From Anaerolineales bacterium (lineage in GTDB: Bacteria > Chloroflexota > Anaerolineae > Anaerolineales > RBG-16-64-43): 64,000 nt of DNA. The stretch is taken from positions 7,245 through 71,244 of the forward strand of contig JAFGKK010000012.1 of NCBI GenBank assembly GCA_016928575.1, read 5' to 3'. The number at the start of each line of letters is the position of its first letter. The stretch's first letter is position 1. This document shows, one piece after another, positions 35,913 through 40,963 of the stretch. The notes beneath the pieces were generated by a model. It searched no databases and was not told the DNA's origin. It saw only the letters and a program-made list of their open reading frames with translations. The translations under genes were made by a program, and so were the position numbers.

Positions 35913-35943
35913 AAAAAAAAACCCCGCGGGAAGCGGGGTTTTT
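35913..35943 (-). terminator. Rho-independent terminator after the second ATP-grasp gene
   Basis: Minus-strand reading is aaaaaccccgc-ttccc-gcggggttttttttt: GC stem followed by a T9 run. Confidence 0.75.
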
Positions 35944-35957
35944 CCGGGGTCGGGCGG

Positions 35958-37001
35958 TCAGGCCATCGCCATCACCGATTCCGGAATTTCGGCCGGAATG
36001 GCGCTGCGGGCAACGGCCAGCTCAAGGATCCGCGCGATCGCCTGGCCGTAGTCGTATCCGGCCGCGCGCGCGGAGCGGGCGAATCCGCCCTCCATGGTGA
36101 TGTCGGGATTCGAGTTGACGTCCACCACGTAGGGGATTCCGTCGCGGACGCGCAGATCCACACGGCCGTAATCCCGCAATCTCAACGAGCGGTAGGTGCG
36201 CCGGCAGACGTTTTCGATCCGGCGCCGCAGTTCGTCCTCCAGCGGGGCCGGGCAGCGCACCGAGGTGAGCAGGTAGGCTTCGGATGCCGGATCCCACTTG
36301 GCGTCGTAGGAGCACAGCCGGTCGTGGTAATCAGGAAAGACGGAATAATCGATGCACGCCAGGGGAAGAACATCCAGCCGGTCGTTCCCCCACAGCGAGA
36401 CGTTGTATTCCGGTCCGTCGATGAAATCCTCCACCAAAGCCTTGCAATGGTACGTATCCAGCACGTACTCCACCCGCTTGCGGAGTTCGTCGGAAGAATC
36501 CACGACGGATTCGCGGGTGATGCCGAAGGAACAATGTTCGGTGGCGGGTTTGACCAGCGCCGGGAACCGGACCCAGCCGTTCCGCGCCGGGCGCGAATAC
36601 ACGGCGGCCTGCGGCGTCGGAATTCGATGGCGGCGGAGGATTTCCTTAGTGGTCACTTTGTCTTCGGTGATGTTCAGGCACCAAGCATCCGATCCGGTGT
36701 AGATGAATCCGAGCCGCTCAAGAATCGGCGGGATCGCATCGTAGGCGTTTGGTTCGCCGTCCAAGCCTTCACACCAATTGAAGATGATGCACTCTCTGGG
36801 GTTAAACCCTTGAAGGGCGCCTTCGATGTCGCGCCGAACGGGGATCGAAGTGACTTCCATGCCAAGCGACGTCAACCCGTACTTCATCCGGGTCACCGCT
36901 TGCTCGGCGGCTTCGATGTCCGCCGAAGTCCAATCGCTCATTACATTGTGAAGGATCAAGACCGAGTACGGATTGTAGATTTCTTTTGTCGATCGTCTCA
37001 T
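35958..37001 (-). CDS. Ddl-like ATP-grasp ligase (paralog 2)
   Basis: 347 aa. Ddl-type three-domain layout (..ERLGFIYTGSD...DKVTTKEIL...ALVKPATEHCSFGI...LVEDFIDGPEYNV...GRVDLRV...YVVDVNSNP). Lacks the canonical Ddl N-terminal GG.S.EHEVS motif. Confidence 0.85.
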   Translation of the reverse strand: MRRSTKEIYNPYSVLILHNVMSDWTSADIEAAEQAVTRMKYGLTSLGMEVTSIPVRRDIEGALQGFNPRECIIFNWCEGLDGEPNAYDAIPPILERLGFIYTGSDAWCLNITEDKVTTKEILRRHRIPTPQAAVYSRPARNGWVRFPALVKPATEHCSFGITRESVVDSSDELRKRVEYVLDTYHCKALVEDFIDGPEYNVSLWGNDRLDVLPLACIDYSVFPDYHDRLCSYDAKWDPASEAYLLTSVRCPAPLEDELRRRIENVCRRTYRSLRLRDYGRVDLRVRDGIPYVVDVNSNPDITMEGGFARSARAAGYDYGQAIARILELAVARSAIPAEIPESVMAMA

Positions 37002-37053
37002 GTCTCTCCTGTTTTTCCGCCGAAACGGATGAACGATCTCCTTTATGATTTTT

Positions 37054-37081
37054 ATTCTACATGACAAAACCGGGAAGTCAA
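37054..37081 (-). promoter_or_regulatory. Sigma70-like promoter TTGACT-16 nt-TAGAAT for ATP-grasp paralog 2
   Basis: Minus-strand reading is TTGACTtcccggttttgtcatgTAGAAT. A leader of about 45 nt contains aaaggag and acaggagag. Confidence 0.45.
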
Positions 37082-37378
37082 TGGGTTGAATCTTAAAGTT
37101 GCCTTTGGGCGCTTTTAACATTTCGCGCGGTTCGCGATGCGGTTTTGCTCCTTCCGCGGCGATGGAATAATTTTTTTTCTCGACTCCGCAGTGAAGTTCC
37201 GGATTTGCTCCGCGAAGGAAATATTTTTTCGGACCGGACGAAAAGAATTGGAGGAATCCACACGTATGAAAATATTTCTCCGCCCGAAGTCGTTCCTTTT
37301 AAAAAATCCGTATCTCCTCAGCCTCAGCAATATTGAAATGAAATCCTGCTCTTTTCCATCCTCACCCCTATCCCCTGG

Positions 37379-37422
37379 CCCCTTCCCCCTCTCCTGACAT
37401 AAGTCAGTAGAGGGGGAAGGGG
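37379..37422. repeat. Long hairpin ccccttccccctct(c)ctgac-ataa-gtcag(t)agagggggaagggg
   Basis: 14 + 5 bp of complementarity with one mismatch. Lies in the 598-bp gap inside the kamA cluster. Confidence 0.6.
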
Positions 37423-37480
37423 TTGAGGGGGTTGGAGGTGAGGAAAGGGCAAGGACGGGGGGCTGAGGAGATACAAAAAA

Positions 37481-37541
37481 CCCTTGGCGTCTTTGCGCCT
37501 TGGTGGTGGAACAAACCACCAAGGCGCAAAGACGCCAAGGG
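37481..37541. repeat. 27-bp perfect hairpin (cccttggcgtctttgcgccttggtggt / accaccaaggcgcaaagacgccaaggg)
   Basis: Arms 37481-37507 and 37515-37541 with a 7-nt loop. Sits about 60 nt downstream of the GNAT stop on the minus strand. Confidence 0.7.
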
Positions 37542-37599
37542 AATCAATCGAATGCGGGTTAAGGCCGGAGAAAAATGGGGCGAAGTGAAAAAACCACGG

Positions 37600-38085
37600 C
37601 TAGAAATGTTTAACGTACACGACCAAATCCTCTCCCGGTTGGTAATAATCACGGATCCGCGCCGAAAGCTGGCAGCCCATTGCCTTGTAGAATTTCGCCG
37701 CCGGACGGTACTTGGCGGCTCCGCTGGTCCAAACCATCAGCAAGCGGCCGCCGCGTGCGCGGATGTCCGCTTCCATCGCCGCGATTAAATTGCGCCCCAC
37801 GCCTCCCCCCCGCGCCTCGGGATCGGAGCAGATCCAATACAAATCGTACGCCCCCTGCGCGAACGACGCCGGACCGTAGCAGGCGTACCCCACCACACGA
37901 CCCTCTCTCCGCGCAGAGAGCCATTCATAGCCCGAGTCGTCCGATTGCAGGTGCGCGTCGAACAATTCAAAGACCGACTCCCGCTCCTCTTCGGTGAACA
38001 CCCCGGCCCGCCGGGTGATCTCGCCGATCGCATCGCGGTCCTCCGGACGGCTGGCCGCCACGCTGAGACCCGGCAAGGGGATCAT
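37600..38085 (-). CDS. GNAT family N-acetyltransferase (161 aa)
   Basis: Acetyl-CoA motif A region (DPEARGGGVGRNLI). The ATG at 38085 overlaps the upstream ATP-grasp stop (ATGA). Confidence 0.85.
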   Translation of the reverse strand: MIPLPGLSVAASRPEDRDAIGEITRRAGVFTEEERESVFELFDAHLQSDDSGYEWLSARREGRVVGYACYGPASFAQGAYDLYWICSDPEARGGGVGRNLIAAMEADIRARGGRLLMVWTSGAAKYRPAAKFYKAMGCQLSARIRDYYQPGEDLVVYVKHF

Positions 38086-39299
38086 CCGAGTCGGCCCGGT
38101 TCCCCTTCGGCGGGAAGCAGTCCGTACCGTTTGGCGCCGGCGGCGAGAACCGATTGAATCAACCGGGGATACTCCCATCCTTCCGCCTGCGCGCAAAGGG
38201 TTAGGTCGCTGATCGGCGTCAGGCCGGGCAAGGCGTTGATCTCGATGATGTACGGCCGGAGGTTCTCCCCTTCGTGCAGGCGGAAATCCACCCGCGCGAA
38301 ATCCAGGCACCGGGTCACCCGGAAGGTCTCCAAGGTCAGCCGGCGGACTTCATCGGCGACGTCTTCCGGGATCGGCGCCGGGCAGAAATACGGATATTCT
38401 TCAAGCGACAGCGCCTTCACCGCATAAGAATAATACGGATCCATGTCCGGGATCCGGGCATGATCCACTTCGGAGATGGGAAAGATATGGATGTCCCCCC
38501 AATCCAGTCCGCCGCTCGGGGTCTTCGGCCGATCCGTCAAATCGGGGATCGGCCGGCCGGATTCCAAAGCGCTCAGGTTCCCCACCAGCCCGCAGGTGAT
38601 ATCGCGGCCGGGGATGTACTCCTCGACCAGCGCAGTCTGGCCATATTCCTTTAATATGTAGTCCACCTTGGCGCGAAGCTGAGATTCGGAGCCCACCAGG
38701 GATTGGCTGTCGATGCCGATCCCGGTTCCCTCGCGATTCGGTTTGACAAACAGCGGAAAACGCAGGGGATCCTCCAAGGGAAGCTCGGCATCCGTGAATT
38801 CCTGGAAACGCGGCGTCGGGAGGCCGAAGGCTTGGAGAATCCGCTTGGTCGCGGCTTTATCGAGCGTATTGGCCAGGCAGGTGACCTTGCCGCCGGTGTA
38901 GGGAATTCCAATCATTTCTAGCATCGCCGGGACCTGGGCCTCGCGCGCGTCCCCGCGGTACCCCTCGCAGGTATTGAAGCAGATATCGACTTTTAGGCGC
39001 TTAAGCCGGCGGAAGAGGTCCGGATTGCCGTCGATCCCGATCACATGGTGTCCGGCCGCGCGCAACGCAGCGGCATAAGCGGCAATGTTGGCCTCGCTGT
39101 CAAGTTCGGCAAACGCATCCGCCGGGTGGGCGCCGTTGGCCGGGGCATGCTTCTTTAAATTATGCAGGACCGCGACGCGCAATCCGCTTTTTCTGCCGGT
39201 TTTTCCGCGGTTGGGGTCTTCTACAGGCCGGGGAGGAACGTTGTCGTCCCCCTTGGGCGCGGTTTTCATATCTTTGGATGAAATATCGGTCAACGGCAA
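38082..39299 (-). CDS. Ddl-like ATP-grasp ligase (paralog 1)
   Basis: EMIGIPYTGG...DKAATKRIL...LFVKPNREGTGIGI...LVEEYIPGRDITC...ARVDFRL...YIIEINALPG. TTG at 39299 or ATG at 39269 as the start. Confidence 0.85.
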   Translation of the reverse strand: MPLTDISSKDMKTAPKGDDNVPPRPVEDPNRGKTGRKSGLRVAVLHNLKKHAPANGAHPADAFAELDSEANIAAYAAALRAAGHHVIGIDGNPDLFRRLKRLKVDICFNTCEGYRGDAREAQVPAMLEMIGIPYTGGKVTCLANTLDKAATKRILQAFGLPTPRFQEFTDAELPLEDPLRFPLFVKPNREGTGIGIDSQSLVGSESQLRAKVDYILKEYGQTALVEEYIPGRDITCGLVGNLSALESGRPIPDLTDRPKTPSGGLDWGDIHIFPISEVDHARIPDMDPYYSYAVKALSLEEYPYFCPAPIPEDVADEVRRLTLETFRVTRCLDFARVDFRLHEGENLRPYIIEINALPGLTPISDLTLCAQAEGWEYPRLIQSVLAAGAKRYGLLPAEGEPGRLG

Positions 39300-39302
39300 T
39301 CC

Positions 39303-40718
39303 TTATGCCTTTGGATGGGGAGGCCTTGCGGACCCTTGCGGACTCTCGGGGTCCTGCGCCGCACCGGCTTCCGCGCCGCCGCCGGGTCCCGGCGGCGCTC
39401 CGATCCCGCGCGGATTCCATTTGCCCGAGTCCCGGTTCAAACGGTGCTCCATTCCCCCGCGGGTATGGGTTATCCCCCAATCCCGAGGTTCGATCGCCAG
39501 ATCGTCCCCGTCGAGCAGGCCGGTGACGCCCTTCTGCCCCTCTTCGGTCCGCTTGCTTCGGCAATCCGGACACGCGGCGGGGTCGTGCGGCGTGTACCCG
39601 AGGGGCTCTTCGTAGATGGAGATGTAGCCTTCGAAATTCCTCAGCGCCACGCGGCGGTCCGACATGCTTAGCAGGTAGTTCGGTCCGAGAGGGATCTTCC
39701 CGCCTCCGCCCGGAGCATCGACAACGTAGGTGGGCACGGCGAAGCCGGAGGTATGCCCGCGCAGGCCTTCGATGATCTCAATTCCCTTTGAGACCGGGGT
39801 GCGGAAATGGCCGGCTCCCTCCACCAGATCGCATTGGTAGAGATAGTAAGGCCGGACGCGGATCCGCAGGAGGTCCTGGACCAGGCGCCGCTGGACATGG
39901 ACGCAATCGTTCACGCCGGCCAGCAGAACCGACTGGTTGCCGAGCGGAACGCCGGCGCGGGTCAGCTTGTCGGCCGCCGCCGCCAGCTCCGGGGTGATTT
40001 CGTTGGGGTGGTTGACGTGGATGTTCATCCACAGCGGGTGGTAGCGCGAAAGCATCGCGCACAGTTCGTCGTCGACGCGCATCGGCAGGAACACCGGAAC
40101 GCGCGAGCCGATGCGGATGATCTCGACGTGGGAAATTTCCCGCAGGCTGGCGATCAGGTTTTCCAGGACCTTCGGCGCGAGCGTCAGCGGATCCCCGCCC
40201 GAAAGCAGCACGTCGCGGACCTGCGGCGTGCGCCGGATGTAATCCAACTGTTCTTCGTATTCGGCCGAGGAGAACTGCTCGGACGGATCCCCGACGATCC
40301 GCGAGCGGGTGCAGTAGCGGCAGTAGGACGCGCATTGGGTCGTGACCAGCATCAGCACCCGGTCCGGATAGCGATGGACCAATCCCGGGACGGGCGAGTG
40401 CTTATCCTCGGCGAGCGAATCCTCCATCATCGCCGTAAACGGCACCAGCTCCTCGGCGGTGGGGATCACCTGGCGCCGGATCGGATCGCGGGGATCGTCG
40501 GGGCGGATGAGGGAGACGAAATACGGGGTGACCTCCACGCGGAACAAGCCGGCCGCCGAAAGCGCCTTGCGTTCGCTCTCGGTGAGCGCAAACACGCGCT
40601 CCAGCTCGTCGGCCTTGTTCAGCCGGTGGCCGAGCTGCCAGCGCCAGTCGTTCCACTGCGCGTCCGGGATCTCCCGGAAGGCGGGGGCGCGGCGGGGATT
40701 TTCTCCCCCGGAAGTCAT
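39303..40718 (-). CDS. kamA: L-lysine 2,3-aminomutase (radical SAM/PLP, KamA/AblA type)
   Basis: CxxxCxxC cluster CASYCRYCTR, YLYQCDL and VVDAPGGGGK (lysine-binding Asp residues and PLP Lys), collinear with clostridial KamA including GLLDGDDLAIEP. ATG at 40718 preceded by GGGAGG. Confidence 0.95.
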   Translation of the reverse strand: MTSGGENPRRAPAFREIPDAQWNDWRWQLGHRLNKADELERVFALTESERKALSAAGLFRVEVTPYFVSLIRPDDPRDPIRRQVIPTAEELVPFTAMMEDSLAEDKHSPVPGLVHRYPDRVLMLVTTQCASYCRYCTRSRIVGDPSEQFSSAEYEEQLDYIRRTPQVRDVLLSGGDPLTLAPKVLENLIASLREISHVEIIRIGSRVPVFLPMRVDDELCAMLSRYHPLWMNIHVNHPNEITPELAAAADKLTRAGVPLGNQSVLLAGVNDCVHVQRRLVQDLLRIRVRPYYLYQCDLVEGAGHFRTPVSKGIEIIEGLRGHTSGFAVPTYVVDAPGGGGKIPLGPNYLLSMSDRRVALRNFEGYISIYEEPLGYTPHDPAACPDCRSKRTEEGQKGVTGLLDGDDLAIEPRDWGITHTRGGMEHRLNRDSGKWNPRGIGAPPGPGGGAEAGAAQDPESPQGSARPPHPKA

Positions 40719-40755
40719 GCCCCCCTCCCGGCGGAACGTTCGCACGGTATGCGGT

Positions 40756-40923
40756 TCATTTTGCCGAAACGTTGGCCTTCGGATTGATCTGCAGGATTTT
40801 TTGCGCGATCGCGGCGCGCGCCTTTGAATCTTTGGCTTCGGCCAAGCGCCGGCGGAGGAACTGCATTTTCAATCTGCGTTGGCGTCGGCGCGAGATTTCA
40901 CGATCCCGTTCGGTCTTCGGCAT
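40756..40923 (-). CDS. 55-aa Arg/Lys-rich small protein; not in the ORF track
   Basis: My translation: MPKTERDREISRRRQRRLKMQFLRRRLAEAKDSKARAAIAQKILQINPKANVSAK. GGGAGG lies 4 nt upstream of the ATG. The stop is 37 nt before kamA on the same strand. Confidence 0.6.
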   Translation of the reverse strand: MPKTERDREISRRRQRRLKMQFLRRRLAEAKDSKARAAIAQKILQINPKANVSAK

Positions 40924-40957
40924 GCAAACCTCCCAAGCGTTTCCATCGGATGAATCC

Positions 40958-40963
40958 AGTATA
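40958..40963 (-). promoter_or_regulatory. -10 box TATACT for the small-ORF/kamA transcript
   Basis: Minus-strand reading is ggagaTATACTggattc, 34 nt before the small-ORF ATG. Confidence 0.35.

Follow-up and report, generated by a model that had tools for sequence, protein, structure and literature searches.

A conserved cassette of lysine 2,3-aminomutase, two ATP-grasp ligases and an acetyltransferase, with a possible role in building beta-lysine peptides

Within a 64,000-nucleotide stretch of the Anaerolineales bacterium assembly GCA_016928575.1 (contig JAFGKK010000012.1, positions 7,245 to 71,244 of the forward strand; here termed the window), a gene for lysine 2,3-aminomutase (kamA) lies together with genes for two ATP-grasp ligases of the D-alanine-D-alanine ligase (Ddl) fold, termed here AG1 and AG2, and for a small GNAT acetyltransferase. 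An earlier note on this DNA had proposed that these four proteins act together on beta-lysine, an idea that the occurrence of the cassette in several phyla, the existence of gene fusions and the residues retained by KamA now support. On balance, we think it probable that the locus encodes a pathway, independent of both the ribosome and nonribosomal peptide synthetases (NRPS), that assembles beta-lysine into a small peptide-like compound. The locus comprises the following features:

40958–40963, minus strand: candidate −10 box TATACT, read in the sequence, 5′ of the DUF6800-kamA-AG1-GNAT operon
40756–40923, minus strand: gene for a small basic DUF6800 protein of 55 aa, the first of the operon (Pfam PF20607, E = 2.7e-9)
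39303–40745, minus strand: kamA, lysine 2,3-aminomutase of the KamA/AblA type, dependent on radical SAM and pyridoxal phosphate (PLP) (TIGR03820)
38082–39299, minus strand: AG1, Ddl-fold ATP-grasp ligase of the AG1-like subfamily, the usual neighbour of KamA (PF07478)
37600–38085, minus strand: gene for a small GNAT acetyltransferase of 161 aa (PF00583)
37475–37541, minus strand: intrinsic terminator 3′ of the GNAT gene (hairpin at 37481–37541), with a 27-bp perfect stem, a 7-nt loop and U6
37355–37440, minus strand: second long hairpin, in the GNAT-AG2 spacer, with a stem of ~35 bp
37054–37122, minus strand: AG2 promoter region, with TTGACT (37081–37076), 16 nt and TAGAAT (37059–37054)
35958–37001, minus strand: AG2, second Ddl-fold ATP-grasp ligase, of the AG2-like subfamily, 347 aa (PF07478)
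35913–35943, minus strand: intrinsic terminator of AG2, a GC-rich stem followed by U9

A check of the open reading frames (ORFs) and the annotation places all genes of the cassette on the minus strand, in the order that had been described: AG1 starts 3 nt past the kamA stop codon, and the GNAT gene starts within an ATGA overlap with the stop codon of AG1. The kamA ORF as listed begins with GTG (40745), with an alternative in-frame ATG at 40718 (MTSGGEN...), and AG2 begins MRRSTKE, with an AGGAG ribosome-binding site 5′ of its start codon. The TATACT box is where the earlier note had read it and is kept as GATATACT in 11 relatives, together with a conserved block ~20 nt further upstream; no good −35 box for this promoter was found by consensus scan. 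At the AG2 promoter, TTGACT and TAGAAT together match the consensus at 10 of 12 positions in the scan and are kept in 11 related genomes, and two A/T-rich half-sites upstream of the −35 box, AATGTTAAA (37122–37114) and TTTAAGATT (37097–37089), are likewise kept in 11 relatives and may bind a regulator or serve as an UP element.

Folding and the promoter scan also bore out the two large hairpins, the AG2 promoter and the AG2 terminator that the earlier note had listed. The first hairpin (ΔG −57.1 kcal/mol, z −12.2) occurs once in the window and, given its stem, U6 tract and folding values, is therefore a strong intrinsic terminator 3′ of the GNAT gene; the second (ΔG −66.9 kcal/mol, z −6.5) likewise occurs once. 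Apart from the promoter region, the 300–600-nt spacer between the GNAT gene and AG2 is unconserved among relatives and holds different hairpins in each genome, so that palindromic elements seem to turn over fast there, and Rfam returned only generic hairpin matches under curated thresholds when this spacer was searched for riboswitches or known RNAs. Because the GNAT gene is followed by a terminator and AG2 has its own promoter, the cassette forms two transcription units in the window, DUF6800-kamA-AG1-GNAT and AG2 alone. The segment holding AG2 and the spacer (36001–38000) has a G+C content of 57%, compared with ~64% in the rest of the window.

Judging from its alignments, KamA is in all likelihood a bona fide lysine 2,3-aminomutase. 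Its score against TIGR03820 (527.6 bits) passes the curated equivalog cut-off of 525.4 by a narrow margin, and it is 58% identical (E = 5e-158) to 2A5H, the structure of the lysine 2,3-aminomutase of C. subterminale. Alignment to 2A5H reveals that KamA keeps the radical-SAM CxxxCxxC cluster (CASYCRYC) and the motifs YQCDL and VVDAPGGGGK, with intact equivalents of Asp293 and Asp330, which bind the epsilon-amino group of lysine, and of the PLP-binding Lys337; the same lysine-specific residues are kept in all four aligned KamAs from cassettes of other phyla. These results agree with the residues previously assigned to the enzyme and with its separation from EpmB, against whose model it scores 267 bits where the cut-off is 369.3. 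In the zinc-site region (CxCxxC in C. subterminale), only CPDC aligns in the window's KamA, and the KamAs of cassettes from other phyla end ahead of this C-terminal region. The last ~60 residues of the window's KamA form a low-complexity Gly/Pro/Ala tail that is missing from 2A5H.

Both ligases have the Ddl fold. Their Pfam matches are limited to Dala_Dala_lig_C, ATP-grasp_3 and ATP-grasp_4, their solved relatives in a PDB search are Ddl and VanA enzymes only, and an AlphaFold model of AG1 (pLDDT 83, pTM 0.84) finds its best fold matches in Ddl structures, with TM-scores of ~0.8 (normalized to the target) at 22–26% identity. However, AG1 scores 169.8 bits with NF002378 and 148.2 bits with TIGR01205, and AG2 119.8 and 94.0 bits, where the family cut-offs are 243 and 245.65 bits, and both proteins fall below all Ddl and Van cut-offs. 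With residues numbered by E. coli DdlB (whose reference sequence is identical to 2DLN), both ligases retain K97, K144, E180, K215, R255, D257 and N272, along with an acidic residue at 270 (E, or D in AG2), and with the ATP-grasp catalytic residues thus kept, both look active. The residues that bind D-alanine in Ddl (the E15-S150-Y216 triad, H63 and S281-L282) are not kept as a set by either enzyme. H63 is replaced by E and M259 by R in both; AG1 has T at S150, V, A or T at Y216 and S281-D282 (D for L282), and AG2 has C or A at S150, W at Y216, D276 and G281-G282 (G for L282), of which W216, C/A150 and G281-G282 are common to the second ligase of cassettes in other phyla. The N-terminal EREVS motif of Ddl is missing from both alignments with DdlB, as the earlier note had observed. 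Because scores fall below the Ddl cut-offs and the D-Ala pockets are remodelled along two lines, both of them kept in different phyla, we conclude that AG1 and AG2 are not D-Ala-D-Ala ligases; the suspicion that neither is the housekeeping Ddl was well placed, given these scores and the replacement of S150, Y216 and L282. The E63, D282 and AEFD motif of AG1, together with Arg259, would fit a substrate that bears additional amino groups. Hypothetical protein JW929_01820 of an Anaerolineales metagenome-assembled genome (MAG) is 100% identical to AG1, and AG2 is the most conserved member of the set among close relatives (84–93% identity, versus 73–85% for AG1). No canonical ddl lies within the window.

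The best solved relative of the GNAT (E = 2e-31) is 2R7H, a Desulfovibrio structural-genomics protein annotated as a "putative D-alanine N-acetyltransferase", and a KamA-ligase-ligase-GNAT cassette on a D. alaskensis-like contig includes a gene whose product is 99% identical to 2R7H itself. The GNAT gave no match to the AblB model TIGR03827 at E ≤ 0.01, and its top NCBIfam match, RimI (TIGR01575, E = 2.4e-10), is under the cut-off.

To follow the cassette through related bacteria, we scanned one genome per species, selected for carrying AG1, which yielded 80 loci, all from Chloroflexota and labelled mostly Anaerolineales, Thermoflexales or Roseilinea. Three architectures recur: KamA-AG1-GNAT-AG2, as in the window; KamA-AG1-AG1′-GNAT-AG2, common in Anaerolineales; and, in Thermoflexales and Roseilinea, AG1, an AG2-like gene, GNAT and a second AG2-like gene, KamA being absent within 10 kb. 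Clusters have from one to three ligases. In this sample, kamA is directly 5′ of AG1 in 43 of 66 evaluable loci, and a GNAT gene and an AG2-like gene are 3′ of AG1 in 54 of 58. As a side observation, dnaA is directly 5′ of the KamA-less clusters in 13 of the 23 Thermoflexales and Roseilinea loci (e.g., L054, 7602–8978), which places such clusters beside the presumed replication origin. One locus (L013, 8484–9804) has KamA matches in two adjacent frames, which points to a frameshifted pseudogene or to an error in assembling the MAG.

The DUF6800 gene behaves differently from the rest of the operon. It was found upstream of kamA in 16 of the 80 genome loci, all belonging to the two-ligase clade of the window type; its own hidden Markov model (HMM) found no copy outside that clade among these loci, even at E ≤ 50, and a homologue search returned close relatives only. 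The single metagenome locus of the window type (L095) also carries it. Other cassettes have no conserved small ORF in its place, and the small ORFs upstream of their kamA genes are mutually unrelated. DUF6800 is therefore a non-core part of the cassette, and its candidacy as a core partner or as a modification substrate, the latter raised in the earlier note, is rejected because it is confined to one clade and no small ORF substitutes for it elsewhere.

Outside Chloroflexota, a search with the 2R7H sequence gave 2054 relatives, and we viewed the genomic context of ten. Eight of these ten distinct contexts contain KamA, a Ddl-like ligase, a second Ddl-like ligase and the GNAT; they come from Desulfovibrio mangrovi, the D. 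alaskensis-like contig, a Planctomycetota MAG and five more metagenome lineages. In every cassette with both ligases at full length, the first is AG1-like (31–38% identity) and the second AG2-like (27–30%), and each shows the signature residues of its subfamily, as do the ligases of the window, where all four genes are likewise adjacent. Because order and signatures are shared across phyla, AG1 and AG2 are two old orthologous lineages rather than recent duplicates of ddl. The association of kamA, ATP-grasp and GNAT genes that the earlier note had anticipated thus extends across phyla (the cassette is found in Chloroflexota, Desulfobacterota, Planctomycetota and Myxococcota), whereas the small ORF that it had included is limited to one clade.

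Three of these cassettes, from Desulfovibrio, the Planctomycetota MAG and a metagenome lineage, encode in addition a protein of ~590 aa in which an N-terminal second GNAT domain is fused to a domain of the histone-deacetylase family (Hist_deacetyl; L081, 10629–12386; L082, 8265–10004; L087, 6211–8004), and genes for sigma-54 activators lie upstream of both Desulfovibrio cassettes. The remaining two of the ten contexts contain a GNAT without KamA or ligases. In Desulfobacterales contigs (L085, 2634–3567; L086, 997–1930), a lone member of this GNAT family overlaps the start of a gene for a 154-aa RF-1 domain protein (ArfB-like), and no kamA or ligase gene was found near it.

The strongest evidence that AG1 takes the product of KamA, and that AG1 and AG2 share a pathway, comes from gene fusions. 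A HMMER search of 1.84 billion cluster representatives (clusters at 50% identity) gave 666 that match AG1 at E ≤ 1e-30. The architectures of the best 149 of these 666 matches were sorted as follows:

Single AG1-like protein: 103 of the best 149
AG1-AG1 tandem fusion: 21 of the best 149
AG1-AG2 fusion: 13 of the best 149
Single AG2-like protein: 5 of the best 149
AG2-AG1 fusion: 4 of the best 149
KamA-AG1 fusion: 3 of the best 149

One of the KamA-AG1 fusion genes is followed by an AG2-like gene and then by a GNAT gene, and one AG1-AG2 fusion is from a Myxococcota MAG. At a further locus (L094, 2505–5310), where a histidine kinase gene and a sigma-54 response regulator gene come first, a gene for an AG1-AG1 fusion runs into the start of a Peptidase_S58 gene (DmpA/BapA family), to which it is translationally coupled. 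The Peptidase_S58 family includes beta-aminopeptidases, and the pair may be a synthesis-and-hydrolysis set for a beta-peptide.

Scanning metagenomes with an AG1 alignment that spans phyla added 80 further loci, in 24 of which KamA is beside AG1. Six or seven KamA-AG1 pairs lack any downstream GNAT or AG2-like gene in the available sequence (L104, L127, L142, L145, L161, L165 and L172, the last with a divergent AG2-like gene upstream of the pair), such that a KamA-AG1 pair with no other conserved neighbour exists as a minimal unit. The same scan uncovered a subfamily of lone AG1-like genes, 42–50% identical, with no kamA, GNAT or AG2 within 5–8 kb (e.g., L103, L105, L107, L135 and L146). A gene for an MFS-like transporter is upstream of lone AG1-like genes in 11 of 38 cases, and a pyroglutamyl-peptidase-like gene is downstream in six. 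No further conserved neighbour, be it an exporter, a regulator or an accessory gene, was found around the AG1 of cassettes, around lone AG1-like genes or around KamA-AG1 pairs. No deacetylase or CxxCxxCC protein is encoded in the window, the 80 genome loci or the 80 metagenome loci, nor is an S58 peptidase in the 80 metagenome loci.

The genes flanking the cassette in the window are housekeeping genes: xseA, xseB, a DUF212 gene and murJ are on one side, and genes for a MazG-like protein, a metallophosphoesterase and a LOG-family protein, followed by proS, are on the other. PADLOC found no match to an anti-phage defence system.

From gene identities, residues, synteny, fusions and transcription signals, we infer substrates, order of steps, product and role as follows. 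KamA would convert L-lysine to (3S)-beta-lysine. AG1, whose two rebuilt pockets are partly acidic, would form the first amide bond via an acyl-phosphate intermediate, with beta-lysine as one of its substrates. AG1′, where present, and AG2, whose acceptor pocket is different and roomier, would add the next residues, and the GNAT would acetylate a free amino group; in some lineages, the GNAT-deacetylase fusion would make this acetyl group removable. The most likely product would be a soluble N-acetylated di- or tripeptide of beta-lysine or a short oligo-beta-lysine, with shorter or longer products expected in lineages with one, two or three ligases. Such variation in ligase number is what would be expected if each ligase adds one residue. 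As to role, the likeliest is that of a stress-related or osmoprotective solute or of a nitrogen-rich reserve, which we favour because of the housekeeping context in the window and the regular company that AG2-like and GNAT genes keep with AG1 in the sampled Anaerolineae.

Several observations weigh against this pathway. AG2 is transcribed separately in the clade of the window, and the acidic pocket residues of the ligases are assigned as putative amino-group binders from alignment. Twenty-three Thermoflexales and Roseilinea loci lack kamA within 10 kb of the AG1 cluster. Among metagenome loci, kamA is adjacent to the AG1-like gene in 14 of 45 evaluable cases and absent from beside it in 31, yet in their pocket residues the lone AG1-like genes match those linked or fused to KamA; these genomes either carry kamA at another site or encode AG1-like enzymes that accept another substrate. 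The large kamA-less subfamily and the Thermoflexales clusters thus limit the claim that beta-lysine is the substrate. In addition, the lack of a conserved accessory gene leaves no clue to the role, and a full-text literature search found no paper describing the cassette and no reported product, substrate or phenotype; the proteins appear in databases as "hypothetical" or "D-alanine-D-alanine ligase".

The main alternative as to role is a bioactive polycation of the streptothricin or negamycin kind, in which N-acetylation would protect the producer and the deacetylase, where present, would activate the compound. The negamycin cluster pairs beta-lysine formation with an ATP-grasp enzyme, streptothricin resistance involves GNATs that acetylate its beta-lysine, and GNAT-Hist_deacetyl fusions are present in three cassettes. 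We nonetheless consider a polycation unlikely: no exporter or resistance gene is conserved, the window and the 80 Anaerolineae loci contain no deacetylase gene, and both the position of the window's cassette among xseAB, murJ and proS and the frequency at which AG2-like and GNAT genes accompany AG1 (in a sample selected for AG1) are unlike what is seen for a sporadic secondary-metabolite cluster. Ranking just behind it, and also unlikely, is the modification of a protein, in which a carboxylate or lysine side chain of that protein would receive beta-lysine, followed by a further residue, from the ligases, with the GNAT and the deacetylase editing the result. This would be an analogue of EpmA/EpmB and would resemble the action of RimK on ribosomal protein S6, of LysX on LysW or of tubulin-tyrosine ligase. 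Protein-modifying ATP-grasp enzymes do exist, and two AG1 homologues have precomputed matches to PF03133 (tubulin-tyrosine ligase family), but the ligases of the cassette are Ddl-type and gave no RimK or LysX match in the Pfam or PDB searches. Similarly, the weak RimI likeness of the GNAT, the overlap of one lone GNAT-family member with an RF-1 domain gene, the unusual conservation of AG2 and the absence of a conserved transporter beside the cassette would all fit a protein target, but no substrate gene is conserved (DUF6800 belongs to one clade and no small ORF is conserved elsewhere), no efp gene was found in the window or the 80 genome loci, KamA falls well below the EpmB cut-off, and the variable number of ligases fits stepwise peptide assembly better. 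That the cassette brings post-translational beta-lysylation to phyla where such modifications are unknown, with the GNAT (in some lineages the deacetylase) editing the adduct, we judge less probable still.

It is very unlikely that the two Ddl-like genes are unrelated neighbours or cell-wall enzymes, i.e., housekeeping or alternative D-Ala-D-X ligases, next to a plain AblAB system. Such a view would draw on the AblA equivalog score of KamA and the co-transcribed GNAT, on Ddl being the closest solved family for both ligases, and on the presence of murJ nearby and of no other ddl in the window. However, the ligases and KamA are linked in several phyla and even fused, the bit scores of the ligases are far below the Ddl cut-off with S150, Y216 and L282 missing, the GNAT has no match to TIGR03827, and Desulfovibrio presumably has its normal ddl in the cell-division cluster. 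We find scarcely credible a microviridin-like peptide made on the ribosome and modified after translation (a graspetide), in which two ATP-grasp enzymes would cross-link DUF6800 as a precursor and the GNAT would N-acetylate it. The content of mdnA-D is alike, with a small ORF, two ATP-grasp genes and a GNAT gene, but graspetide ligases are RimK-like and those of the cassette Ddl-type, most cassettes lack DUF6800 or any conserved small ORF, and KamA, which keeps all residues for binding free lysine, would be superfluous in a graspetide pathway. Several tests of membership contradict each of these readings, be it housekeeping Ddl, plain AblAB or graspetide.

The proposed beta-lysine pathway shares features with several known systems. 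In the standard AblAB pathway, which is documented in the literature, AblA/AblB of methanogens and KamA/YodP of Bacillus make N-epsilon-acetyl-beta-lysine, and a KamA-type aminomutase is likewise co-transcribed with a GNAT. The cassette differs from it in having two ATP-grasp ligases as obligatory partners, one even fused to KamA, and a GNAT of 161 aa from the 2R7H family that does not match the AblB model. With Ddl and Van enzymes, the ligases share fold, ATP, Mg and catalytic residues, and these are their best matches in sequence and structure, but their scores are below all cut-offs, their D-Ala pockets are rebuilt and their context is a kamA cassette. The earlier note had held that no known fate of beta-lysine uses an ATP-grasp enzyme, which is not supported, as the negamycin (neg) cluster combines genes for making beta-lysine with one for an ATP-grasp enzyme. 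There, as here, an ATP-grasp enzyme is encoded together with an aminomutase that supplies a beta-amino acid, and amides are formed stepwise without an NRPS; in contrast to neg-type systems, the present cassette is found outside actinomycete secondary-metabolite clusters, as a compact four-gene unit without tailoring or export genes. Other stand-alone ATP-grasp ligases include the L-amino acid ligases BacD and TabS and the enzyme for beta-arginine ligation in blasticidin S.

Our working model was Ngg, of the pathway to N-acetylglutaminylglutamine amide (NAGGN), in which acetylation by a GNAT and peptide bond formation by an ATP-grasp enzyme also give a small N-acetylated peptide. Ngg is one fusion protein and, together with AsnO, acts on glutamine, whereas the cassette has separate proteins, Ddl-type ligases and, presumably, beta-lysine as the building block. 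EpmA/EpmB resembles it in that an aminomutase of the KamA family feeds beta-lysine to a dedicated ligase, but the KamA of the cassette is of the AblA/KamA type and the cassette has ATP-grasp ligases in place of a LysRS paralogue; no linked efp gene accompanies it, and, although EpmA was not searched for as such, no extra gene is conserved.

We view the cassette as a widely distributed and unstudied case in which a beta-amino-acid mutase would feed stand-alone ATP-grasp peptide ligases. If our reading is true, it would constitute an undescribed route from lysine to beta-lysine peptides or oligomers in anaerobic bacteria of at least four phyla, and would add ligases for a beta-amino acid to the ATP-grasp toolbox. 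It would also correct a systematic mis-annotation as "D-alanine-D-alanine ligase" and give the orphan structure 2R7H a function. Desulfovibrio is genetically tractable, and the presence of the cassette there makes the question directly testable. The product may be a new compatible solute, nitrogen reserve or polycation of these bacteria.

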